64,000 nucleotides of DNA from Bryobacterales bacterium (GCA_965204435.1 OZ241997.1:5817132-5881131), one strand, 5' to 3'. Positions 2,446 to 32,707 are shown, numbered from the stretch's first letter. Numbers and translations: made by a program. Notes: a model not told the origin generated them from the letters alone.

Positions 2446-4140
2446 ATGCTGCCGGTGCGGATCATGGCCTGCCTGCTGGCTCTAGCCACTGGTACGGCAG
2501 TGGCGCAGCGATTCGAGGATGCCCTCGCGCGCACTGGAATCGATTTCGTGCACGCCCCGTCGAAGACACCGCGCAAGTACCTGCCGGAGACCATGGGTGG
2601 CGGAGTCGCCCTGTTAGACGCCGATCTTGACGGGCGCTTGGACGTATTCTTCGTCAATGGTGCCGGCCTCTCGTTCCCGCACGCCGAAGGTGTCGAACCG
2701 GACAAGTCCGATCCCAACTATTGGAATCGCCTCTACATCAACCGCGGCGACTGGCGCTTTGAAGATGTCACCGAGACCTACGCGCTGCAGGGGCGAGGCT
2801 ACGGCATGGGTGCGGCTGTGGGCGACTATGACAACGATGGCGACCCTGACCTATTGGTGACGAGTTTGGGCACCGGGGACTCGCCGGCGGCCCAGCTCTA
2901 CCGCAATGACGCCGGGCGCCGCTTTGTTGAGGTCACGCGGGAGGCGGGTATTGATGTACAGGGCTGGGCCACCAGCGCGGGGTTTTTCGACGCCGACAAC
3001 GATGGGGACTTGGACCTGCTGATCCTGCGCTACATGCGGTGGAGATTTGATGTCGACCATCGCTGCGGCATGGAAGCCAGCCACGGCCGCTCGTACTGTC
3101 ACCCGGATCTGTTCCCGCCCGAATCGAACGTGCTCTACCGCAACAACGGGGATGGCACCTTCAGCGATGCGAGTGTTTCCTCGGGCATCGCCGACCATGC
3201 CGGCAAGGGCCTGGGGCTCGCCTTCGCGGACTACGACCTAGATGGCTGGACGGACGTCGCCATTGCGAATGACTCGCACCGGCAGTTCTTGTTCCGCAAT
3301 CTTGGGAATGGCAAGTTTTCCGAAGAGGCGCTCATAGCGGGCACCGCCTTTGACGACCACGGCGCGGAATTCGCCGGCATGGGCATCCTGTTTGAGGATC
3401 TGGATGACGACAGCCTTGCAGACTTGGTCGTTACGACGCTCTCGCAGGAGCGCTATGCGCTCTTCTTTAATGCCGGCGGCGGCTTGTTCGACTACTCCAC
3501 GGGGCGCTCAGGGCTCGGGAGCGCGACCCAGCTGTTCGCGGGTTGGGGTCTCGCTGCATTTGATGCAGATGCAGACGGACGGCGCGAGATCTTCTTCGCC
3601 AACGGACATGTGATGGACAACATCGAGCAGTCCCAGCCACACATCAGCTACCTGCAGCCGCCGCTGCTGTTTAGACTCGACGGCCGCGCTCTGACGGATG
3701 CGTCCGACTCGGCAGGGGCGTTGTTTTCGACCGCATGGGCGAGTCGAGGCGCTGCTGTCGGGGACTTGGACGACAACGGCTTGCCGGACCTAGTCGTGTC
3801 GAACCTCGGCGGCGTGCCGTACGTTGCGCGAAACGTGTCTAGCGGAGGCAACGGCTGGATCGGGGTGCGACTCGAAGGCTGCGCGAGCAACCGCGACGGT
3901 CTTGGTGCCAGTGTCATGCTGGAGGGCGACGACGGCCGGGCCCAGCGCCGGACGGTGACGCGTAGCGGCAGTTACTTGGCTGCTCGGGATCCCCGAGTGT
4001 TCTTCGGAACCGGCCCGCGGCAGGCGGTGGGAAGCCTCACTGTGACTTGGCCGAGCGGAGCTGTGTCGACATTCGAGGACGTGCGAGCCAATGAGGTCAA
4101 CGTGATCCAAGAGACGCCCGGCTGCAATCTGGACCTCTGA
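2446..4140 (+). CDS. CRTAC1-family protein (FG-GAP/VCBS repeats plus ASPIC/UnbV C-terminal domain)
   Basis: Multiple DxDxDG repeats (DADLDGRLD, DYDNDGDPD, DADNDGDLD, DYDLDGWTD, DLDDNGLPD). C-terminal NGWIGVRLEG...RSGSYLAARDPRVFFGTG. Start set at ATG 2446, giving signal-like MLPVRIMACLLALATGTAVA. Confidence 0.85.
   Translation: MLPVRIMACLLALATGTAVAQRFEDALARTGIDFVHAPSKTPRKYLPETMGGGVALLDADLDGRLDVFFVNGAGLSFPHAEGVEPDKSDPNYWNRLYINRGDWRFEDVTETYALQGRGYGMGAAVGDYDNDGDPDLLVTSLGTGDSPAAQLYRNDAGRRFVEVTREAGIDVQGWATSAGFFDADNDGDLDLLILRYMRWRFDVDHRCGMEASHGRSYCHPDLFPPESNVLYRNNGDGTFSDASVSSGIADHAGKGLGLAFADYDLDGWTDVAIANDSHRQFLFRNLGNGKFSEEALIAGTAFDDHGAEFAGMGILFEDLDDDSLADLVVTTLSQERYALFFNAGGGLFDYSTGRSGLGSATQLFAGWGLAAFDADADGRREIFFANGHVMDNIEQSQPHISYLQPPLLFRLDGRALTDASDSAGALFSTAWASRGAAVGDLDDNGLPDLVVSNLGGVPYVARNVSSGGNGWIGVRLEGCASNRDGLGASVMLEGDDGRAQRRTVTRSGSYLAARDPRVFFGTGPRQAVGSLTVTWPSGAVSTFEDVRANEVNVIQETPGCNLDL
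3946..4140 (+). repeat. Left copy of a ~195-bp imperfect direct repeat (functional 3' end of the CRTAC1/ASPIC gene)
   Basis: Aligns by eye at about 80% identity with 6737-6932. The first ~57 nt differ at 2 positions plus one 1-nt indel. Confidence 0.8.
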
Positions 4141-4173
4141 TGAGTGCAGACCATGCTCGTTTGCGCGCAGGCT

Positions 4174-4220
4174 ATGCACAGGTCGGCCAGACGTGGTTCG
4201 CGTGGGGCCGACCTGTGCAT
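4174..4220 (+). terminator. Strong hairpin 34 nt after the ASPIC stop (15-bp perfect stem, 17-nt loop)
   Basis: ATGCACAGGTCGGCC at 4174-4188 is the exact reverse complement of GGCCGACCTGTGCAT at 4206-4220. There is no U-tract, so intrinsic-terminator function is inferred only. Confidence 0.45.
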
Positions 4221-4501
4221 CTTGAGCGTCCCTAGGAACTGTGCGTCGTCCAAGCTAATCCGCTTTCCCAATCATTGCGTAACGGTGGAATCTGGCACGC
4301 GAAATCGACATGGAGACCAAGTTGGTGTACCTGACGCTCTCTAACGGCGTTGTCTGTACTGCCAAGTGCGTCGGCGATCAAGGTTACGTCACGCTGCCTC
4401 TTGGGGAAGACAGGCTCCCTCGATCGGCAGCTTCGGAAGCGATTATTACTACGAGCCGCACCGGATCTTGCCGGCGATCGGTGCCGGGGTGGCAGTGTCT
4501 C

Positions 4502-5473
4502 TCAGGACAATCCCCTGTGACGGCGTACGTTGAGGGCCTTCCATTTGAGAAGCGGCTGGGCCTGGATCCGTTGTTGTAGGGTGGTGTTGGCGGTCAAGAG
4601 CGCCCCGTCGATTTCCCCTCGGTCCAACAGCAGATCTAGAAATGCGAGTTCGGCGTCGGTGAACGGCAGAACATTGGACAGCGCCCGCCTGCATTCTTCA
4701 ACGAGCCGCGCACCGTACTCCGCCAATGCCTCCTGATCTCGCGGTGGGCGGATGCGAAGGGTGGGTCCGAGTTGCCTCACCAGCTCCACGCTGTCGAAGT
4801 CTACATCGTCGGCCGAGACGGTCCGCCAGTCTCTGCGGTTCATACCCCCGTAGACAACGAAAGCAGTGCGGAGCCGTTCCCGCTGCAATTCGAACGCATC
4901 AAAGATGCGATGGCAGTCGAACAGGTCTCTTGCTTGCTGGCGCGAGAGTAGAGCAGAGAGCTTGCCGGCCACGAGCTCATGCAGGTCGAGAATGGGAACA
5001 CGCTTGGCTTGAAGATCCCCGAGCGGGTACGAATCGGCGTGGTGAATCTCCCAGAGCGGCTGCCGGTACATGAAATTGAAGTCCACCTCAATCTTCGCGG
5101 GCTGCCCGGCAAAGTTCGGGTAGCTGAGGCGCCACTTTCCGCCGGCGTGTTCGGCCGGCACTCTCCGGACAGCGAACCCTTCACGGGAAAAGACCGCTTG
5201 GGCCGCTTCCTCGATCCTAAGGCGGTCCGCCAGCATGTCCTCACGCCCTAGTGCACCGATGTAGTTGAGATCGATGTCTACTGACAACCTCGGGAGGTTG
5301 AGGACGAACAGGTTCAAGGCGGTGCCTCCCTTCAATACCCACTTCCCCCTCAGCGACGGGTGTGAGTTCAGGACGTTCAGAAGATGCGCTAGATGGAGAA
5401 CCTTCTCTACCGTACCCTCGTCGAACCCGTCGGGTCTGGCGATACTGCGGATTTCCGCCAGGGGGAATCTCAC
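4502..5473 (-). CDS. abiEii: AbiEii/AbiGii-family nucleotidyltransferase toxin (type IV TA / abortive infection)
   Basis: 323 aa. Contains KGGTALNLF and LSVDIDLNY motifs typical of DUF1814/AbiEii. The start overlaps the upstream antitoxin stop by 4 nt. Confidence 0.85.
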   Translation of the reverse strand: MRFPLAEIRSIARPDGFDEGTVEKVLHLAHLLNVLNSHPSLRGKWVLKGGTALNLFVLNLPRLSVDIDLNYIGALGREDMLADRLRIEEAAQAVFSREGFAVRRVPAEHAGGKWRLSYPNFAGQPAKIEVDFNFMYRQPLWEIHHADSYPLGDLQAKRVPILDLHELVAGKLSALLSRQQARDLFDCHRIFDAFELQRERLRTAFVVYGGMNRRDWRTVSADDVDFDSVELVRQLGPTLRIRPPRDQEALAEYGARLVEECRRALSNVLPFTDAELAFLDLLLDRGEIDGALLTANTTLQQRIQAQPLLKWKALNVRRHRGLS

Positions 5474-6309
5474 AGCGTTTCCCCCCAGGACCGATCTAGG
5501 ATTTCGGCCGGGATCATGAGGTTCCAGTCCTTGACCCAGCGGCAGCCTTTGGGTCGGCCGCGTGTCAGGTAGTGTGGCCGGCGCGGACAGAGTTCGCGCA
5601 GCGCCTCGAGGTGTGCCTCCTCCACCATCAACGGCTTGCGCTGCTGCTCCAGGAAGAATCCCACCTTGGCGGCGGTAGTCGCATTCCCCAGCAGTCGGGT
5701 GTAGGCGATGACCTGATCGAGGTCAAAAAACTCCACAGACTCCAGAGACCGCCAGATCTCCTCCCAGCCTCCGGACAACTCCGGCCGGTCCAGCACATCT
5801 ACCAGAGTGCGCTCGTGGTTAGTCACCCGTAGTGCGACGCCAGAGCGATCATGGCGGGTGACCCCGAACATCGCCTCGCCCTTCGCCAAGAGCGGCAATG
5901 GTGTGGGAGCGCCCCGGAACTCGTGCGACTGGAAGGTGAGCGGGAGCGACCTGCCCGCCGAGACATATACCAGCTGCCAATGGGCCGAGTAGGCCCTGCC
6001 GTGGAATTCCAAGGCCGTGTGATAGGCCAGCACGGAGTCCTCGGTCATCTTGGCCGCCACCAAGTACGGATCAACCGTCATGGAGGCCGCGTCCATGCCC
6101 CAGGGCACGGTCGTATATAGACCGCGACGCACTCGGAGGATGCGGCGCTGCTTGCGGTGATAGGCCAGCAGAGAGTTGCGTGTGTTCGTGTTGCGTGATC
6201 CCCGATCGTGCAGATAACGGTCCAACTCGTCTACCGTAAATACAGGGTGCCGTTCCAAGAAGCGATTGAGCCTGACGGGACCGTTCGTTTGATGATCGGT
6301 CGACATCAC
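5470..6309 (-). CDS. abiEi: AbiEi-family antitoxin / transcriptional regulator
   Basis: 279 aa with an N-terminal wHTH-like segment (FTVDELDRYL) and a C-terminal AbiEi_4-like region (LDRPELSGGWEEIWRSLE). It lies directly upstream of abiEii. Start is GTG 6309 or ATG 6306. Confidence 0.85.
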   Translation of the reverse strand: MMSTDHQTNGPVRLNRFLERHPVFTVDELDRYLHDRGSRNTNTRNSLLAYHRKQRRILRVRRGLYTTVPWGMDAASMTVDPYLVAAKMTEDSVLAYHTALEFHGRAYSAHWQLVYVSAGRSLPLTFQSHEFRGAPTPLPLLAKGEAMFGVTRHDRSGVALRVTNHERTLVDVLDRPELSGGWEEIWRSLESVEFFDLDQVIAYTRLLGNATTAAKVGFFLEQQRKPLMVEEAHLEALRELCPRRPHYLTRGRPKGCRWVKDWNLMIPAEILDRSWGETL

Positions 6310-6316
6310 ACTAGTT

Positions 6317-6345
6317 AATTTAGTTGTTTCCAGTTAATTTGTCAA
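6317..6345 (-). promoter_or_regulatory. Sigma70-like promoter of abiEi-abiEii (TTGACA-17 nt-TAAATT) embedded in short repeats
   Basis: On the minus strand, TTGACA is at 6345-6340 and TAAATT at 6322-6317. It ends about 8 nt before the start codon. AAATTAACT occurs twice, and GTCAAA...TTTGAC form an inverted repeat just upstream. Confidence 0.4.
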
Positions 6346-6415
6346 AAAAGGATTTGACGAAACGTCGAAATACTAGGCAGATTGCTCTGAGTCTCTGACC
6401 TGAAACACCATCATC

Positions 6416-6735
6416 CTATTGTTCCGTGGGCTGACGTTCTACGTAGCTGAGCGCTGCGCGAGCAAGCAAACTGGACCGGGTTTCGCCTTCTCGCGCCGCC
6501 GCCGCGCCCACGATTGCCAGAACGTGCGCTGGACCGTGATGTTGATCCGCCTCGTCTTGCTCTAGCTTGGAGGCATCGACATTCACGAGCGCCCAGATGC
6601 CACCCTTGTAATGCTCGCTCGCTCAGTGCGTTTCGAGCGATTCCCTTGCGGGTCTGGATTCTCCCTCCATCAACAGTCCCTCCAGATGGCAGGAGATGGC
6701 CTCGTGAGTAGATTCGACGGCTTCCTCAAGCGTAT
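6416..6735 (-). pseudogene. hicB: hicB antitoxin remnant (5'-truncated, in-frame TGA)
   Basis: Translates to GDTLEEAVESTHEAISCHLEGLLMEGESRPARESLETH*ASEHYKGGIWALVNVDASKLE...AAAAREGETRSSLLARAALSYVERQ. This matches the HicB N-domain end plus the RHH tail. The N-terminus is cut at the junction with the ASPIC fragment, and the in-frame stop is at 6623-6625. Confidence 0.7.
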
Positions 6736-6736
6736 C

Positions 6737-6932
6737 GCCGGGCGGTGACGCGTAGCGGAAGTTACTTGGCTGCTCGGGACCCCGAGTGTTCTTCGGAACT
6801 GGCCAGCGGCGGGTGCCGGAAAGCCTGACCGTGACCTGGCCGAGCGAAGCGGTGTCGAGGTGCGGGGATCTGCAAGCCAACGCGGTGAACGTGATCTCAG
6901 AGACGCCCGGCTGTAACCCGGTTCCCCGCTGA
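6737..6932 (+). pseudogene. Decayed duplicate of the CRTAC1/ASPIC gene 3' end (right copy of the direct repeat)
   Basis: About 80% identical by eye to 3946-4140. A 1-nt deletion (gggacccc versus gggatcccc) shifts the frame. After the shift it reads PRVFFGTGQRRVPESLTVTWPSEAVS...NVISETPGCNPVPR*. Confidence 0.8.
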
Positions 6933-7033
6933 GTCCCCCTTGCTCTGTTGCGGCCGCTAAGGATTCGCTTGCGCCGAGCCGCGGCCAGCTTGGTAGACTC
7001 TGTTTCGCTTCGCTGATCGCGAGTTGAACCGTA

Positions 7034-8476
7034 ATGCGGTTGATTGTCCGATGCGCCATCGTCGCTGGGCTTCTCGCCGGCCTGCTCCCGGCTGCTTCTC
7101 CTCCGCCAAACGTGATCGTGGTTCTGGTGGACGACTTGGGCTGGATGGACTTGGGTTGCCAGGGCTCGGACTTCTATCGCACCCCGAACATCGACCGCTT
7201 GGCTGCAACGGGCATGCGGTTTACCGATGGTTACGCCTCGTGTGCGGTCTGTTCGCCCACGCGGGCTGCCTTGATGACCGGACGGTCGCCGGCCAGACTT
7301 GGCATCACCGACTGGATCCGTGCTGAGTTCCAACTCAGCGCGCGCCAGTGGCCTAACGTCCGGGACAGATTCGGCTACCACCGCACGGGCACCGCCGATC
7401 GTGAATTGCTCACTCCCGTGAACGAGTTGCAGCTGCCGCACAGCGAGATCACGCTGGCTGAGCTGCTCAAGCCGGTCGGGTACGCCAGCGCCTTCATCGG
7501 GAAGTGGCACCTGGGAGGACGGGGTCACTTGCCGGTCGACCAGGGCTTCGACGAGAACTATGGCGGATGGGACTATGGACAGCCGCCGTCGTACTTCGAC
7601 CCGTTCGTGGAGCTTCCTCGGTTGCCGATGGGCATCCCTACGCTCGCGCCGCGGCAGCCCGGAGAGTATCTGACGGATCGTGAGGCAGACGAGGCCGTCG
7701 CGTTCATCGAGCGCAACAAGGACCGGCCGTTCCTGCTGTATTTGTCGCACTACGCGGTGCATACGCCGATTCAGGCCAAAGAGGACTTGATTGAGGAATA
7801 CGAGCGTCGCCGGGATGGCCAAGGGCAGGACGATGCTGTCTACGCGGCCATGGTGCATAGCGTGGATGACGCCATGGGGAGGTTGCTCGAGACTCTCGAC
7901 CGGACCGGCCTCACTGATCGCACGTTGATCGTGTTCACAGGCGACAACGGCGGGCTTGACCGTCAGGGCCGCCCGACCGAGAACGCTCCGTTGCGCAGCG
8001 GCAAGGGATACGCCTACGAAGGTGGGCTGCGAACGCCTTGGATCGTGCGCTGGCCGGGTGTCACAGAGGCCGGAGCGGTCTCTCCGGAGCCGGTTGCCAG
8101 CATTGATTTATTGCCCACGATTGCCGCAGCTGTCGGAACCAGGCCGCCCGCCGACCGGGAGATCGATGGCATTGACCTAGGCCCGGCCCTGCGGGGCGGC
8201 AAACTCCCTGAGCGGGCGCTCTTGTGGCACTTCCCGCACTACCGGCACGGCCCGGGCCACGATCCGTACTCAGTAGTGCGCAAGGGAGACTGGAAGCTGA
8301 TCCGCTTCTACGATCCGGCCAAGACCGAACTCTACAATCTTGCCGACGACCTCGGCGAAGCCAACGATCTGGCAGCCTCGGAACAGGATCGGGCCGACCA
8401 GCTCTCAGCCCTATTGGACGAGGGTCTCAAAGCCGTCCGCGCACGAATGCCGATCGCGACGCAACAGGCCCCGTGA
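7034..8476 (+). CDS. Sulfatase (Cys-type, arylsulfatase A family)
   Basis: 480 aa. Signal peptide, PNVIVVLVDDLG, and the CSPTRAALMTGR formylglycine signature. Confidence 0.9.
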   Translation: MRLIVRCAIVAGLLAGLLPAASPPPNVIVVLVDDLGWMDLGCQGSDFYRTPNIDRLAATGMRFTDGYASCAVCSPTRAALMTGRSPARLGITDWIRAEFQLSARQWPNVRDRFGYHRTGTADRELLTPVNELQLPHSEITLAELLKPVGYASAFIGKWHLGGRGHLPVDQGFDENYGGWDYGQPPSYFDPFVELPRLPMGIPTLAPRQPGEYLTDREADEAVAFIERNKDRPFLLYLSHYAVHTPIQAKEDLIEEYERRRDGQGQDDAVYAAMVHSVDDAMGRLLETLDRTGLTDRTLIVFTGDNGGLDRQGRPTENAPLRSGKGYAYEGGLRTPWIVRWPGVTEAGAVSPEPVASIDLLPTIAAAVGTRPPADREIDGIDLGPALRGGKLPERALLWHFPHYRHGPGHDPYSVVRKGDWKLIRFYDPAKTELYNLADDLGEANDLAASEQDRADQLSALLDEGLKAVRARMPIATQQAP

Positions 8477-13094: not shown

Positions 13095-16007
13095 ATGGAC
13101 TTGGCAATGTGCCGTCCTGGCAATCTTGGTGCGGGGCTCGCCGTCGTGGCGGCGTGGTGCGTTGCCTTTAGCGCCCAAGGCTCAGACTTCGAGTCAAGCG
13201 TACTCCCTATCTTGGAGCGGCGGTGCGTGGCTTGTCATGGCGAACAGCCGCAAGGCGGGCTCAAGCTCGACACCCAGCGACACATCTTGGAAGGAGGGCA
13301 ATCGGGGGCCGCGGTGGTGCCCGGATATCCGGATCGCAGCTTGCTGCTGGCCAAGGTGGTCTCAGGGCAAATGCCAATGGGGGGTGAGAAACTGCCCGAG
13401 TCAGAGATCGACACGATCCGCCAATGGATAGATGAGGCTGGCCGGTCTGCGGCGGTCACGGCGGAGTTGCGCACGGCTGAATCCCATGTGCTGCCGATCT
13501 TCCAGATGCGTTGTCAAGTCTGCCATGGCAAGCGAAAACAGGAAGGTGGCTTGGACCTGCGCACGATGGCCTCGCGCCTGAAAGGCGGTGAGTCCGGGCC
13601 CGCCCTAGTGCCTGGCAAGCCGGAGGAAAGTCTCTTGCTGCAGCGCATCGAGCGTGGCGAGATGCCCCCGCCGGAAATGCTCTTCGAGAACCATGTCAAG
13701 ACGCCGACCGACGCTGAGGTTGCTTTATTGCGGAAATGGATCGCCGAAGGAGCGCTGCCGTCTGAGAATGACGAACCCGTCGCGGACCACCCGCTAAGCG
13801 CTGAGGAACTCTCTCACTGGGCGTTTCAGACTCCGGTGCGGCCAGAGCCGCCGGAAGTGCAGAACGCTGCTAGGGTGCGCAATCCGATCGACGCCTTCAT
13901 TTTGCAAGAGCTTGAAGCCAAGGGTCTCGCCCTGTCGTCTGAAGCCAGCCCTAGAGCCCTGCTGCGCCGCGCCTATCTGGACCTGACGGGCATGCCGCCG
14001 ACGCTCGAACAAATTCGCGCCTTTGCCGACGAATCGGGGCCCGGCGCATACGAGCGGCTGGTCGACCAGCTGCTTGATTCACAGGAATATGGAGAGCGCT
14101 GGGCGCAGGTCTGGCTGGATTTGGCGGGCTATGCCGATTCGGAGGGCGTGATCGACGAGGACAGGCTGCGGTTGCACGCTTGGCGCTACCGCGACTACGT
14201 GATTCGTGCCCTCAACAGCGACAAGCCCTACGATCGCTTCCTGATCGAGCAGTTGGCAGGCGACGAGATAATTGACTACGCGAGCCTTGAAAGCGTTACC
14301 CAAGAGCATGTCGACACGCTCGCCGCCACGGGCTTTTTGCGCATGACTCCAGACGGCACTTACGGCTCCGCCACTGGATCAATCGCCGAGCGCTTCACTG
14401 TGGTTGCGGATGAGATCGAGGTGCTGAGTTCCGCGGTCATGGGAGTCACCGTAGGGTGTGCCCGCTGTCACGATCACAAGTACGACCCACTCTCCCAGCG
14501 GGAGTACTACAGCCTTGGGGCGGTGTTTCAGTCGGCGCTCGACCCGTATGACTGGTTGGATCCCACCGAGCGTTTCCTTGAAGTCGGCCTGGCTTCCGAG
14601 CAAGAGGCCGCTGCCGCCGCGAATGCTCCGCTAGAGGCTGAGATCGAGCAGTTGCAAGCCGAGTTCGATGCATTGGTGACGCCGTTCTTCGAACGTGAAC
14701 TTGAGCGGCGGTTGGCTGAGTTGCCAGCGGATCTGCGAGAGGGCTTGAGGGAAGTGGCGAACACTCCGCGCAAGATGCGGACCGCCGCTCAGAAGAGGCT
14801 TGCCGGCGAGCACAGAGACTTGCTACAGATTCCCAATGCCGATGGCGAATGGCACCAGATCGCCGAGGCCTTTCCGGAACTGAAGGACACCGCCGGGCCG
14901 GTCAACACCAAGATCAAGGAACTGAAGGACCAGCTAATCCCTACGCCGAAGATTCGGGCCGTGTTTGACATGGGAGGCGAGCCATCGCGCACCTACCTGC
15001 TGCAGCGTGGTGATGCGCAGGCAATCGGGGAGCGCGTTGCGCCCGCTGTGCCGCGTATGCTCGCGGCTCGCACCGCGCCGCTAAATCCCGCGCCTACCAG
15101 GGCGGGCACCAGCGGGAACCGCCTGGCATTCGCGCGCTGGCTCACCGACCCCGAGCATCCTCTGACCTCGCGGGTAATGGTCAACCGCATCTGGCTCGGC
15201 CACTTCGGACGGGGCATCGTCTCCACGCCCTCGAACTTCGGCCTTACCGGGGCGACCCCCTCGCATCCCGAGTTGCTGGATTGGCTGGCGACTGAATTCG
15301 TACGCCGGGGGTGGAGCATCAAGGCCATGCATCGGCTAATCATGACATCCGCCACGTATCGGCAGACGTCCCGAGTTTCCGAGGAATCTGCCTCTGCTGA
15401 TCCTGAGAACCTCCTTCTGTCACGCATGCCATTGCGGCGTATGGATGCCGAATCCTTGCACGATTCGATCCTGCGTACGACCGGCAGATTGGATGCGAAA
15501 CGCTTCGGGCGTCCGGTCAAGGTCACCAAGAAAGAGAATGGCGAGATCGTTCCCGAGGCAACTGAAGATGGTTGGCGGCGGGCTGTCTATGTGCTGCGGA
15601 AACGGCGCACGCCGGTCACCTTGCTAGAGGTGTTCGACGCACCGAAGCCGGCGCCGAACTGCACTGAGCGACGAGAGTCCAACGTTGCGCCGCAAGCGCT
15701 CCAGATGATGAACGGTGAGGCGGCCCTCGAACACGCCAGGTTCTTAGCGGGTCGACTGATTGACGAGCACCCTGGCGATCGTGCGTCACAGGTTTCGGAA
15801 GCGTACGAGCGCATCTTGTCGCGACCGCCCACCGATGCCGAAACCGATCTGGCGATGAAGGACTTAGAATCCTTGGACCAGCACTGGGTAGCCCACCTTG
15901 AGACGACAAAGCATCCCGGCCCTCGCCGCGAGGCGGCGCGCTGGATGGCCTTGGGTTCGTTCGCCCACGCCCTGCTGAACTCGGCAGAATTCCTGTACAT
16001 CGATTGA
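13095..16007 (+). CDS. PSCyt/DUF1549/DUF1553 protein (Planctomycete-type cytochrome c domains)
   Basis: 970 aa. Two N-terminal CxxCH motifs (CVACHG, CQVCHG), a CARCHDHKYDP motif, and a DUF1553-like C-terminus. Confidence 0.85.
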   Translation: MDLAMCRPGNLGAGLAVVAAWCVAFSAQGSDFESSVLPILERRCVACHGEQPQGGLKLDTQRHILEGGQSGAAVVPGYPDRSLLLAKVVSGQMPMGGEKLPESEIDTIRQWIDEAGRSAAVTAELRTAESHVLPIFQMRCQVCHGKRKQEGGLDLRTMASRLKGGESGPALVPGKPEESLLLQRIERGEMPPPEMLFENHVKTPTDAEVALLRKWIAEGALPSENDEPVADHPLSAEELSHWAFQTPVRPEPPEVQNAARVRNPIDAFILQELEAKGLALSSEASPRALLRRAYLDLTGMPPTLEQIRAFADESGPGAYERLVDQLLDSQEYGERWAQVWLDLAGYADSEGVIDEDRLRLHAWRYRDYVIRALNSDKPYDRFLIEQLAGDEIIDYASLESVTQEHVDTLAATGFLRMTPDGTYGSATGSIAERFTVVADEIEVLSSAVMGVTVGCARCHDHKYDPLSQREYYSLGAVFQSALDPYDWLDPTERFLEVGLASEQEAAAAANAPLEAEIEQLQAEFDALVTPFFERELERRLAELPADLREGLREVANTPRKMRTAAQKRLAGEHRDLLQIPNADGEWHQIAEAFPELKDTAGPVNTKIKELKDQLIPTPKIRAVFDMGGEPSRTYLLQRGDAQAIGERVAPAVPRMLAARTAPLNPAPTRAGTSGNRLAFARWLTDPEHPLTSRVMVNRIWLGHFGRGIVSTPSNFGLTGATPSHPELLDWLATEFVRRGWSIKAMHRLIMTSATYRQTSRVSEESASADPENLLLSRMPLRRMDAESLHDSILRTTGRLDAKRFGRPVKVTKKENGEIVPEATEDGWRRAVYVLRKRRTPVTLLEVFDAPKPAPNCTERRESNVAPQALQMMNGEAALEHARFLAGRLIDEHPGDRASQVSEAYERILSRPPTDAETDLAMKDLESLDQHWVAHLETTKHPGPRREAARWMALGSFAHALLNSAEFLYID

Positions 16008-30691: not shown

Positions 30692-30838
30692 CCCAACTTA
30701 CCCCGACCACTTTTTGCGCTATGGGCCTTTGCGTGCCTGAGGCCCGGCACCTAACCTCTTCGCATTCAATAGCTTAGCCTCCGAGCACTACTGGCTATCC
30801 CTCCCAATGCGCCCAAAATGACCCCTCGAAAACCGTTT

Positions 30839-30936
30839 TTCCTAGTCATACAATATGACTTGCAGCAGTTGTCATTGATCCATTTATCTGCTATCATTGT
30901 TGCCAGTTAGAACCTGCTGGTTCCTAGTCATACAAT
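30839..30936. repeat. IS-internal 16-bp direct repeat pair TTCCTAGTCATACAAT (30839-30854 and 30921-30936)
   Basis: Exact repeat 82 bp apart. Each copy contains TACAAT. The second overlaps the transposase ATG at 30935. Confidence 0.8.
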
Positions 30937-32707
30937 GCACATCACCTCCTCTTTCGCCCGCAAGTCCCCCTGCCACCTCTTGCGCGAATCCTACTGGCGC
31001 AACGGCAAGGTCCACAAACGCACTCTCGCCAATCTCTCCGCTCTCCCCCAGCCCCTCATCGACCTGCTCAAGGCCGCCCTCGACCGCCAACTCCCTCTCG
31101 GCAGCCCCCACGCGCCCGTCCAGGCCGGGCGCGCGCGCCAGCACGGCGCCGTCTCCGCCCTGCTCGGCCTCGCCCGCAGCCTGCGCCTCGACCGCCTGCT
31201 CTTCCACCAACCCTGCCGCCAGCGCTCGCTGGCCCTCGCCCTGATCCTCGCCCGCCTGCTCAAGCCCGGCGCCAAGCTGCGCCTGGAACGCGAACTCGGC
31301 CCCGCCGGCCAAACCACCCTCGCCCACCTGCTCGACATCCGCAACGCACCCGTGGACGAACTCTACGACGCCATGGACTGGCTGCTCAAGCGCCAGCCCG
31401 CCATCGAGCGCAAGCTCGCCAAACTCCACCTCCGGCAAGGCGGCCTGGCCTTGTACGACCTCTCCTCCAGCTACGTCGAGGGCTCCTGCTGCCCGCTGGC
31501 CAAACGCGGCTACTCGCGCGACCATCGCTCCGACCGCCCCCAGATCACCTACGGCCTGCTGTGCAATCAGGACGGCTGCCCGATCGCGGTCGAGGCCTTC
31601 GCCGGCAACACCGCCGACCCCAGCACGCTCAGCAGCCAAGTCAACAAGTTGCGGCAACGCTTCGGCTTGCAACGGCTGGCCCTGGTCGGCGACCGCGGCA
31701 TGCTGGCCCAGACGCGCATCGCGGGCGAGCTGCAGCCAGCCGAGCTGGACTGGATCACGGCCCTGCGCCACGACAGCATTCGCAAGCTGGCTGCCGAGGG
31801 GCACTTCCAGCCCTCGCTGTTTGACACGCACGGCTTGGCCAGCATCACCGCGCCGGACTTCCCCGACGAGCGCCTGCTGGTGTGCTACAACCCGCTGGTG
31901 GCCGCCGAGCGGCGGCGCAAGCGCGCCGACTTGCTGGCCAGCACCGAGGCCGACCTGGCCGGGATGGCCAGCGCCTACGCGGCCGGCAAGATCGACCGCG
32001 ACGAGTTCAACCGGCGCTTGGGCACGCTGCGCAGGCGCAAGATGGGCAAGCACTTGCAGTGGTGCTTCGACGAGCACACGGAGGCCTTCAGCTCGACGCG
32101 CGACGAGGAGTCGATCGCGGCCGAGGCGCGCCTGGACGGCTTCTACGTGGTGCGCACCAGCCTGGCGGAGCAGGATCTGGACGATGCCGGGGTGGTGCGC
32201 GCCTACAAGAGCCTGGCGCGGGTGGAGCGGGCTTTCCGCTCACTCAAGACGAGCGGGCTGCGGGTGCGCCCGATCTTCCACTGGAAAGAGACGCGGGTGC
32301 GGGCGCACCTGCTGGTGTGCATGCTGGCGTACTACGTGGAATGGCACCTGCGGCGCCAGCTGGCGCCGCTGTTGTTCAGCGAGGAAGGCGAGCCCCAGCA
32401 TGCGGGCGGGCCGGTCGGGCCAGTGCAGCGCAGTGAGGCTGCCAAGCGTAAGGATCGCACGCGCCGGACGGCTGATGGGAGCCTGCCGGTGCAGAGCCTG
32501 GCAGACCTGTTGGCGGGGCTGGGCACGCTCAGCGCAGTGGAGTTGAAATACGCACAGGTGCCCGGCTATGCGGTGCCCACGCTGAGCGAGCTGGAGCCGT
32601 TACACGAGCGCGTGTTCGAGCTCCTGGGCTTCCAGCCCCACCCGGCACCGGCGCTGAGCGAGCCACCAGACAACCCAGGCAATGCGCCGCCCAAGACGCC
32701 AACCTAG
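30935..32707 (+). CDS. IS1634-family (IS4 superfamily) DDE transposase
   Basis: 590 aa. N-terminal YWRNGKVHKRTLANLS is typical of IS1634-type transposases. LYDLSSSY and LVGDRGM are candidate DD residues, and YKSLARVERAFRSLK is the Y-R-E-K-type motif. Confidence 0.85.
   Translation: MHITSSFARKSPCHLLRESYWRNGKVHKRTLANLSALPQPLIDLLKAALDRQLPLGSPHAPVQAGRARQHGAVSALLGLARSLRLDRLLFHQPCRQRSLALALILARLLKPGAKLRLERELGPAGQTTLAHLLDIRNAPVDELYDAMDWLLKRQPAIERKLAKLHLRQGGLALYDLSSSYVEGSCCPLAKRGYSRDHRSDRPQITYGLLCNQDGCPIAVEAFAGNTADPSTLSSQVNKLRQRFGLQRLALVGDRGMLAQTRIAGELQPAELDWITALRHDSIRKLAAEGHFQPSLFDTHGLASITAPDFPDERLLVCYNPLVAAERRRKRADLLASTEADLAGMASAYAAGKIDRDEFNRRLGTLRRRKMGKHLQWCFDEHTEAFSSTRDEESIAAEARLDGFYVVRTSLAEQDLDDAGVVRAYKSLARVERAFRSLKTSGLRVRPIFHWKETRVRAHLLVCMLAYYVEWHLRRQLAPLLFSEEGEPQHAGGPVGPVQRSEAAKRKDRTRRTADGSLPVQSLADLLAGLGTLSAVELKYAQVPGYAVPTLSELEPLHERVFELLGFQPHPAPALSEPPDNPGNAPPKTPT

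Follow-up and report, generated by a model that had tools for sequence, protein, structure and literature searches.

In rhs genes, C-terminal displacement leaves behind dissociated fragments that consist of a piece of the core plus a tip, and a route through a circle and homologous recombination has been proposed (Jackson et al. 2009, PMC2935791). When e14 or phage 21 inserts in icd, the inserted DNA supplies the live 3' end of the gene, and the original end persists as the pseudogene icdC (PMC13626634). Homology-facilitated illegitimate recombination (HFIR), in which foreign DNA is trapped beside a homologous anchor, has been shown in Acinetobacter, Pseudomonas stutzeri, Streptococcus pneumoniae, and E. 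coli conjugation (PMC3240628), and it has been proposed for the displacement of type VI secretion (T6SS) effectors (Kirchberger et al. 2017, PMC5361080). Here, we describe a locus within 64,000 nt of DNA from Bryobacterales bacterium (GCA_965204435.1 OZ241997.1:5817132-5881131; we call this whole 64-kb stretch the window). The 3' end of a gene of the ASPIC/CRTAC1 family is present twice, on either side of a 2.7-kb islet that carries an AbiE toxin-antitoxin (TA) pair. Our best reading is that the locus is the scar of a gene-end (C-terminal) displacement, at a hotspot that varies from strain to strain and lies between the ASPIC gene and a sulfatase gene, in a population of Bryobacterales (Acidobacteriota). 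Recombination scars of this class are well understood, and the mechanism is not new.

The locus resembles rhs loci, and the related orphan tips in the effector-immunity arrays of contact-dependent growth inhibition (CDI) and T6SS (Kirchberger et al. 2017, PMC5361080), in that downstream of an intact gene there is a fragment made of a core piece and the former tip. The core pieces are nearly identical and the tips differ, there is cargo between them, and there is no integrase. However, the host gene, with its FG-GAP repeats and UnbV_ASPIC domain, is not a polymorphic toxin and has no cognate immunity gene. Its tips are homologous UnbV_ASPIC alleles (about 75% identical at the nucleotide level) and not toxin domains unrelated to each other. 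An AbiE pair and gene fragments take the place of an immunity gene as cargo, and just one end, not a series, has been displaced. The likeness to icd and e14 lies in a hybrid live gene with a displaced 3' pseudogene and in a segment that both junctions share; if the insert were lost by recombination, the result would again be a chimeric intact gene. Unlike e14, no variant of the ASPIC islet contains an integrase, an excisionase, or phage genes, and the insert is just 2.7 kb of mostly gene remnants, with a right boundary that cuts through hicB. Because it has neither a polymorphic toxin nor an integrase, the ASPIC locus fails the defining features of both families. As in HFIR, one end of the insert is homologous (with the body of the ASPIC gene as the anchor), the other end is not, and foreign DNA lies trapped beside the anchor; the difference is that the process is inferred here from a natural scar in uncultured organisms. 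The marks of a transposon-type target-site duplication are absent as well: the two copies are different alleles, and we found no transposase and no terminal inverted repeats in the islet.

Two alleles of one gene end

The live ASPIC gene lies at 2446..4140 on the plus strand. It encodes a signal-peptide-like N-terminus, FG-GAP repeats (FG-GAP_3, E = 1e-36), and an UnbV_ASPIC domain (E = 1.7e-15) that is intact; the gene is a hybrid, as described below. The start that we use (MLPVRIM, at 2446) agrees with the called orthologues.

A local alignment of 3700-4400 against 6500-7200 matched 3946-4165 (copy 1) to 6736-6952 (copy 2), with 178 of 220 columns identical (81%) and three gap columns. The score was 227, as compared to 22.1 ± 2.2 (maximum 32) for 300 shuffled sequences. 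When the window was compared to itself with BLAST, this repeat had E = 9e-52, and no other duplicated gene end was found in the 64 kb. The first-pass annotation, a model's reading of the sequence, had reported by eye a direct repeat of about 195 bp and 80% identity. The repeat and its identity held up, and the length was too short, as the alignment continues for another 25-30 nt or so past both stop codons. It had also noted two differences and a 1-nt deletion in the first ~57 nt, which we see over columns 1-58 as two substitutions and a deletion in copy 2. This deletion (near 6780) is specific to the window and is not found in copy 2 of two related contigs, L160 or L163. (L numbers designate related contigs, and P numbers designate orthologous proteins.) As had been suggested, copy 2 still encodes an UnbV_ASPIC C-terminus (PF07593, E = 4.8e-5) and has a stop codon of its own, at 6930-6932.

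The differences between the two copies are unevenly spread: there are 3 in the first 65 nt and 32 in the last 130 nt (p = 3e-4). The first part is the shared segment, whose left copy (3946..4010, plus strand) is of the resident type and codes for the conserved motif RRTVTRSGSYLAARDPRVFFG. Within the shared segment, a small dyad, CTCGGG-ATC-CCCGAG, can be read from the sequence. The second part corresponds to the most variable part of the protein. Across strains, the last ~45 residues of ASPIC (the equivalent of window positions 4011-4140) are hypervariable, and the other ~520 residues are much more conserved. Among 35 orthologues (P0241-P0275, from four clusters at 90% identity), there are at least 10 types of C-terminal end, so that the population combines a conserved body with a variety of alternative tips. 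Relaxed constraint, selection, and repeated replacement of the end are candidate causes of this hypervariability.

One of these orthologues, P0245, ends in an intact version of the copy-2 sequence (...GQRRVPESLTVTWPSGAVSRYEDLQANAVNVISETPGCSPDPR), and the site in its contig (L180) is empty, with no islet. Since copy 2 is the live allele in L180, copy 2 (6736..6932, plus strand) is a complete resident gene end that has been displaced and survives as a fragment. Identity between copy 2 of the occupied strains and the live end in L180 is about 94-98%. Relative to L180, copy 2 of the window has 4 differences in the first 65 nt and 7 in the last 130 nt, and copy 2 of L160 has 4 and 2. In contrast, copy 1 of the window has 1 difference in the first 65 nt and 30 in the last 130 nt, which is a significant step (p = 3.9e-5, Fisher's exact test). 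No such step is seen in L165, an empty allele that served as a control (8 and 19 differences). Furthermore, copy 2 runs on into the native flank and the sulfatase gene, which are 94.6% identical to L180.

The end of copy 1, together with about 30 nt after its stop codon, is an allele that is about 23% different from the resident one. We refer to it as the imported gene end (4011..4170, plus strand); it comprises the last ~43 codons of the gene (...STFEDVRANEVNVIQETPGCNLDL) and ~30 nt of post-stop sequence in which homology to the native intergenic region persists; GTGCGAGCCAATGAGGTCAACGTGATCC is an example stretch of the imported end. It is about 75% identical to every native end. The imported protein end is present in seven of the orthologues, and the imported-end haplotype, with differences that become dense from 4071, is found in all ten contigs with the islet and in none of the empty ones.

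By these comparisons, copy 1 is a hybrid, with resident sequence up to about 4010 and the imported allele from 4011 on. The left junction (J1) lies between about 3992 and 4010 and is homologous, in register, and in frame. The right junction (J2, at 6735/6736) is a non-homologous join of a broken hicB (cut at position 28 of the protein family's profile) to position -195 of the ASPIC gene. What the alignments show is a junction that is homologous and in register on one side, a non-homologous one on the other, and a resident end that was kept. The first-pass annotation took the ~195 bp to be duplicated upon insertion, but the two copies have the same sequence in just their first ~46-65 nt, and the rest is a resident allele opposite an imported one.

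Empty and occupied sites in related strains

A scan of species-representative genomes with the ASPIC protein gave a closest relative of just 52% identity among the matches listed, and a scan of metagenomes gave one orthologue at 85% (L080). An exact look-up of the window's sulfatase and AbiEii proteins found both to be absent from the record. Orthologues of the sulfatase are numerous, with up to 97% identity, and those with a named source are from Bryobacterales or Terriglobia. We therefore gathered relatives from the contigs that encode homologues of the sulfatase, matches to AbiEii, or members of the ASPIC clusters.

Nine contigs (L165, L167-L173, and L180) have an empty site: two TPR genes and the ASPIC gene are followed by about 101-106 nt and then the start codon of the sulfatase gene. 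The window has the same flanks. The two TPR genes are on the minus strand to the left of ASPIC (767-1714 and 1719-2420), and the conserved right flank (6933..8476, plus strand) is made up of the native intergenic region of 102 nt and the sulfatase gene (7034-8476, plus strand; PF00884, E = 2e-58). A gene for an M20 peptidase is also present in the locus. That an accessory cassette of 2.6-2.7 kb entered at the end of the gene, as the first-pass annotation proposed, is borne out by these nine contigs, in which ASPIC is joined directly to the sulfatase gene.

The same islet is present in ten contigs (the window, L160-L164, and L174-L177), in four structural forms. In L160-L162, a gene of the Uma2 family takes the place of 4639-5252, inside abiEii. 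L163 and L164 have this change as well and are also missing 6285-6655. In L174, L175, and L177, AbiE is intact, copy 2 is absent, and 6706 is joined to about 6963. L176 has the islet with intact AbiE, and its contig stops at the equivalent of 6460, before the position of copy 2. Four more contigs (L080, L166, L181, and L182; type B) have a divergent ASPIC allele, with DNA unrelated to the islet starting some 45-55 nt past its stop codon, and no duplicated gene end. A second full-length ASPIC gene upstream of the sulfatase gene, which would have argued against an insertion, was found in no sampled relative (nine empty, three to four type B, and ten occupied), and the insertion stands. Taken together, these arrangements indicate that the ancestral state is a single ASPIC gene.

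We considered whether the L174 type, which has the islet without copy 2, could be the donor or the ancestor of the window's arrangement, and rejected it as the direct donor, given that it retains 30 nt less of hicB than the window does. It is better explained by a deletion of about 260 bp between GGAGATGGCCTC and GGAGGATTC; in the window, this imperfect microhomology brackets the 260 bp that the L174 type is missing. The junction in L174 (at ~8773, or window 6706/~6963) is within about 2 nt of the end of the homology that follows the imported stop codon, and so the L174 form resembles a clean insertion in the intergenic region. This appearance, despite the shorter hicB, is not fully explained.

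Erosion of the islet is under way by several independent routes. The Uma2-family gene (PADLOC PDC-S03, E = 1e-14; L160 7046-8218, with the gene at 7237-8133, and L163 7604-8500) replaces 613 bp of abiEii and so kills the toxin gene in two groups of strains. At L163 9617-9621, the loss of window positions 6285-6655 removed the start of abiEi along with its promoter, and the hicB remnant was halved. In L169 (12903-13646), a further Uma2 gene has been inserted between the genes for the M20 peptidase and ychF, and the Uma2 genes behave like mobile insertions.

The type-B islets are at L080 7608-8855, L166 9474-10000, and L181 11672-12198. L166, L181, and L182 retain just a 527-bp remnant. The islet of L080 includes an open reading frame (ORF) of at least 219 amino acids with no match in Pfam, PADLOC, or NCBIfam. 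By eye, this downstream ORF had looked similar to AbiEi, a reading that we dropped for lack of any such match.

A second strain-variable spot lies on the far side of the TPR-TPR-ASPIC block, between a methyltransferase gene and the TPR genes. It holds a PIN-domain gene and a small upstream partner (L166 5260-5941, L167 and L168 5626-6307, L181 7458-8139, and L080 1942-2440), which are not present in L165, L169, or L180. In the window, positions 1-536 are a 96% identical inverted copy of 30692-31227, which is the 5' part of an insertion sequence (IS) element (30692-32707) whose transposase is encoded by the ORF at 30935-32707 (DDE_Tnp_1); in other words, the window begins inside an IS copy. Synteny with the relatives, which have a TPMT-type methyltransferase gene there, restarts exactly at 537, so the IS sits at, or has replaced, the methyltransferase gene.

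Contents of the islet

The foreign DNA spans from about 4011 to 6735 (~2.7 kb). The hairpin, the adjacent abiEii and abiEi genes, and the 5'-truncated hicB next to the repeat were all described correctly in the first-pass annotation, and hicB ends exactly at 6736. Where the unique imported DNA begins on the left, 34 nt after the ASPIC stop codon, is the G+C-rich hairpin (4174-4220, plus strand). Its arms (inverted repeat I1) are 20 nt and 90% complementary, and the region 4141-4240 has a minimum free energy of -51.9 kcal/mol (z = -4.15). The hairpin is perfect only in the window; L160, L163, and L174 have interruptions in the stem. It is probably a terminator-like or mRNA-end structure, with no U-tract.

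Past the hairpin, about 300 nt had been left unassigned. Part of this (4298..4411, plus strand) turned out to be a remnant of 38 codons from a gene of the beta-lactamase family (PF00144): with tblastn, residues 109-146 of a 506-amino-acid protein from L178 align to it at 76% identity (E = 1.3e-13).

The AbiE genes are intact and on the minus strand. The toxin gene abiEii (4502..5473) encodes a putative nucleotidyltransferase (PF08843, E = 1.3e-30, with 107.6 bits against a cutoff of 22.5; PADLOC AbiEii, E = 6.8e-102, over the full length of the profile). The antitoxin or regulator gene abiEi (5470..6309) matches positions 2-264 of the 265 positions of PADLOC's AbiEi profile (E = 1.3e-114); its Pfam match, to AbiEi_4, is weak (17.2 bits, which is under the cutoff of 25). 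The antitoxin gene is immediately upstream of the toxin gene in the same operon, and the two overlap by 4 nt (5470-5473). The upstream region (6310..6401, minus strand), which is the right end of the AbiE module, includes a promoter-like site that was identified by a promoter scan (TTGACA-17-TAAATT, at 6345-6317 on the minus strand). Two direct AGTTAATTT repeats (6313-6321 and 6332-6340) straddle this site, and they may be the AbiEi operator. With strong matches to both families, an overlapping antitoxin-first layout, and a promoter upstream, the pair is predicted to be a type IV TA or abortive-infection system. We saw nothing unusual in the pair itself; what is notable is its location and arrival.

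A 1.9-kb AbiE module (4484-6401) recurs, at 89% identity, at a different locus in L178 and L179, which are from another Bryobacterales genome. There, the beta-lactamase-family gene (13454-14974) lies 3.5 kb from the module, with the same order and orientation as in the window. The module in L178/L179 (9074-10990) is between a gene for an unknown protein of 137 amino acids and a second sulfatase gene, and IS110 and Tn5-type transposases are nearby.

The last component is a hicB pseudogene (6416..6736, minus strand) that is truncated at its 5' end, with J2 at its edge. The fragment matches PF15919 with E = 1.2e-6, and a repaired reading matches profile positions 28-123 of 123 with E = 8.9e-26. 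The first ~27 positions of the profile are gone, and there are an in-frame stop and one frameshift. There is no ORF for hicA in the islet; the displaced ASPIC end occupies its expected position. With HicB not intact and no hicA next to it, this is not a HicAB system.

As the first-pass annotation had noted for the window, the islet contains no integrase or transposase, and the same is true of the other nine occupied contigs (L160-L164 and L174-L177). A search of viral contigs with a pattern for the imported end gave no match, and the single match in a search of plasmids was an irrelevant stretch of 74 nt. Overall, the insert looks like chromosomal DNA of a related lineage that was shortened by deletions, with AbiE as the sole intact cargo.

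Route of entry and biological meaning

Under the displacement reading, DNA from another lineage would have brought the alternative last ~43 codons of ASPIC and about 30 nt of downstream sequence. The same incoming piece would have carried the hairpin, the beta-lactamase fragment, the intact abiEi-abiEii pair, and the decayed hicB, and it would have been joined to the resident chromosome by homology at J1 and without homology at J2. The imported end would then complete the live gene, and the resident end (6736-6932), moved 2.8 kb downstream, would be decaying. Three candidate routes of entry would give the same product.

We give about even chances to HFIR of linear donor DNA. The donor would be a strain that already had the imported end allele with the islet behind it. 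The anchor would be the long body of the ASPIC gene, which is about 95% identical, with a crossover upstream of position -195 and the illegitimate joint at -195. This route needs just one event, of a documented type, and a long anchor. The type-B lineages have a different islet behind a different gene end and no duplication, so donor-like arrangements do exist.

Several observations weigh against this route or do not favor it. The form expected of a donor (the imported end and the islet, with more of hicB or all of it and with copy 2 missing) is not among the sampled relatives, and L174, L175, and L177, which lack copy 2, have 30 nt less of hicB than the window and are not the direct donor. 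At J2, a plausible candidate for a microhomology is limited to an overlap of CGCCGG with the codon for a conserved glycine of HicB (GCC on the plus strand). The near identity of the first 65 nt would be equally expected if the crossover took place inside that segment, as with a circle or an att site. Also, we know of no competence or transfer route for these uncultured bacteria.

A possible but clearly less probable route is a Campbell-type integration, which the first-pass annotation had listed. A small circle would have carried the hicB fragment joined to a ~195-bp homologue of the ASPIC end, along with the hairpin, the beta-lactamase fragment, and AbiE. With 65 nt of this homologue nearly identical to the resident gene and the rest about 75% identical, a single RecA-dependent crossover within the 46-65 bp of shared segment would yield exactly the topology seen here, in which each end has a near-identical segment, the left side is an in-register hybrid, and the right boundary is non-homologous. 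A circle would also explain why the old tip was shunted aside without a deletion, as discussed for rhs (Jackson et al., PMC2935791), and any occupied chromosome could remake such a circle by recombining its two 65-bp segments. However, the homology is short (65 nt at high identity), and an illegitimate circularization would still be required beforehand. Small circles without replication or transfer functions move poorly between cells, and the circle junction was not observed. Of this proposal, the mimic of the gene end is real, as the imported end is present in every occupied strain; the circle cannot be separated from linear HFIR. We had thought that the two copies might be reciprocal mosaics with a breakpoint near column 125 (p = 0.057, maximum chi-square test); we dropped this because P0245 and L180 carry the whole of copy 2 as a natural, live resident allele.

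It is unlikely that the islet is a decayed integrase-dependent element, with the ASPIC 3' region and a replacement end as its attP core, that lost its integrase and most of its other DNA to deletion. The anatomy does match that of icd-e14-icdC, in which the live gene runs on into the element and its former C-terminal part survives as a pseudogene at the far end (PMC13626634). The block of identity of 46-65 nt at both junctions and the dyad within the shared segment also fit. But no integrase gene or remnant was found in the ten occupied contigs, across four structural variants, and the ~350 nt of the islet that are left without an assignment are too little for one. The deletion would need to have stopped exactly at the boundary of the core. 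The contents look chromosomal (a beta-lactamase remnant and an AbiE module that has a chromosomal copy) rather than like the genes of a phage or an integrative and conjugative element, and there were no matches to viral contigs or plasmids.

Two other explanations can be set aside with far more confidence. Copy 2 might be what is left, after a deletion, of a tandem paralogue of ASPIC upstream of the sulfatase gene, and the cutting of hicB and copy 2 at one point is what such a deletion would produce; given that all sampled relatives have one ASPIC gene (with or without the islet), and that the window holds no other ASPIC homologue, we regard this loss of a paralogue, another suggestion of the first-pass annotation, as highly improbable. 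Least credible of all is an in-situ duplication of ~195 bp upon insertion (whether as a target-site duplication of very great length or as a local tandem one) followed by divergence: a direct repeat does flank the insertion, and its first 58 nt are nearly identical, but the last 130 nt differ by about 23-25% as compared to about 5% between strains that share the insertion, there is no transposase or terminal inverted repeat, and the live allele of L180 matches copy 2 and not the end of copy 1, so that the 130-nt tails are two alleles, one of them alive in another strain, which excludes it.

The near-identical 65-nt repeats would permit loss of the islet by RecA-mediated recombination, which would restore the native gene. 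As a TA pair, AbiE would counter-select such loss. AbiE is the sole functional cargo and is predicted to give abortive-infection or addiction activity, which would help the islet to persist. In strains of the L174 type, the deletion of copy 2 would lock the islet in place.

The locus is a cleanly resolved natural case from uncultured Acidobacteria of soil and freshwater, for which the sampled contigs cover the empty, the occupied, and the decayed state. It illustrates how a TA or defence module can be fixed beside a core gene without an integrase or a transposase, by bringing its own copy of the gene's end. It is also a caution for annotation: a short "duplicated" gene end near accessory genes can be a resident allele plus an imported one.

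A routine exchange of ASPIC ends together with downstream cassettes would fit both the hypervariability of the ends and the presence of two independent islets. More speculatively, and we consider it unlikely, the conserved motif-coding stretch near the 3' end of ASPIC/CRTAC1 genes (RSGSYLAARDPRVFFGTG) could be a recurrent landing pad for small gene-end cassettes that have no integrase. By analogy with the tips of rhs and CDI genes, such cassettes, each with a substitute gene end and a TA or defence module, may be exchanged between strains via the conserved body of the gene. If this is true, then C-terminal displacement reaches beyond polymorphic toxins to an ordinary gene for a secreted protein, and the landing pad would explain both the hypervariable ends of ASPIC and the turnover of downstream islets in Bryobacterales.

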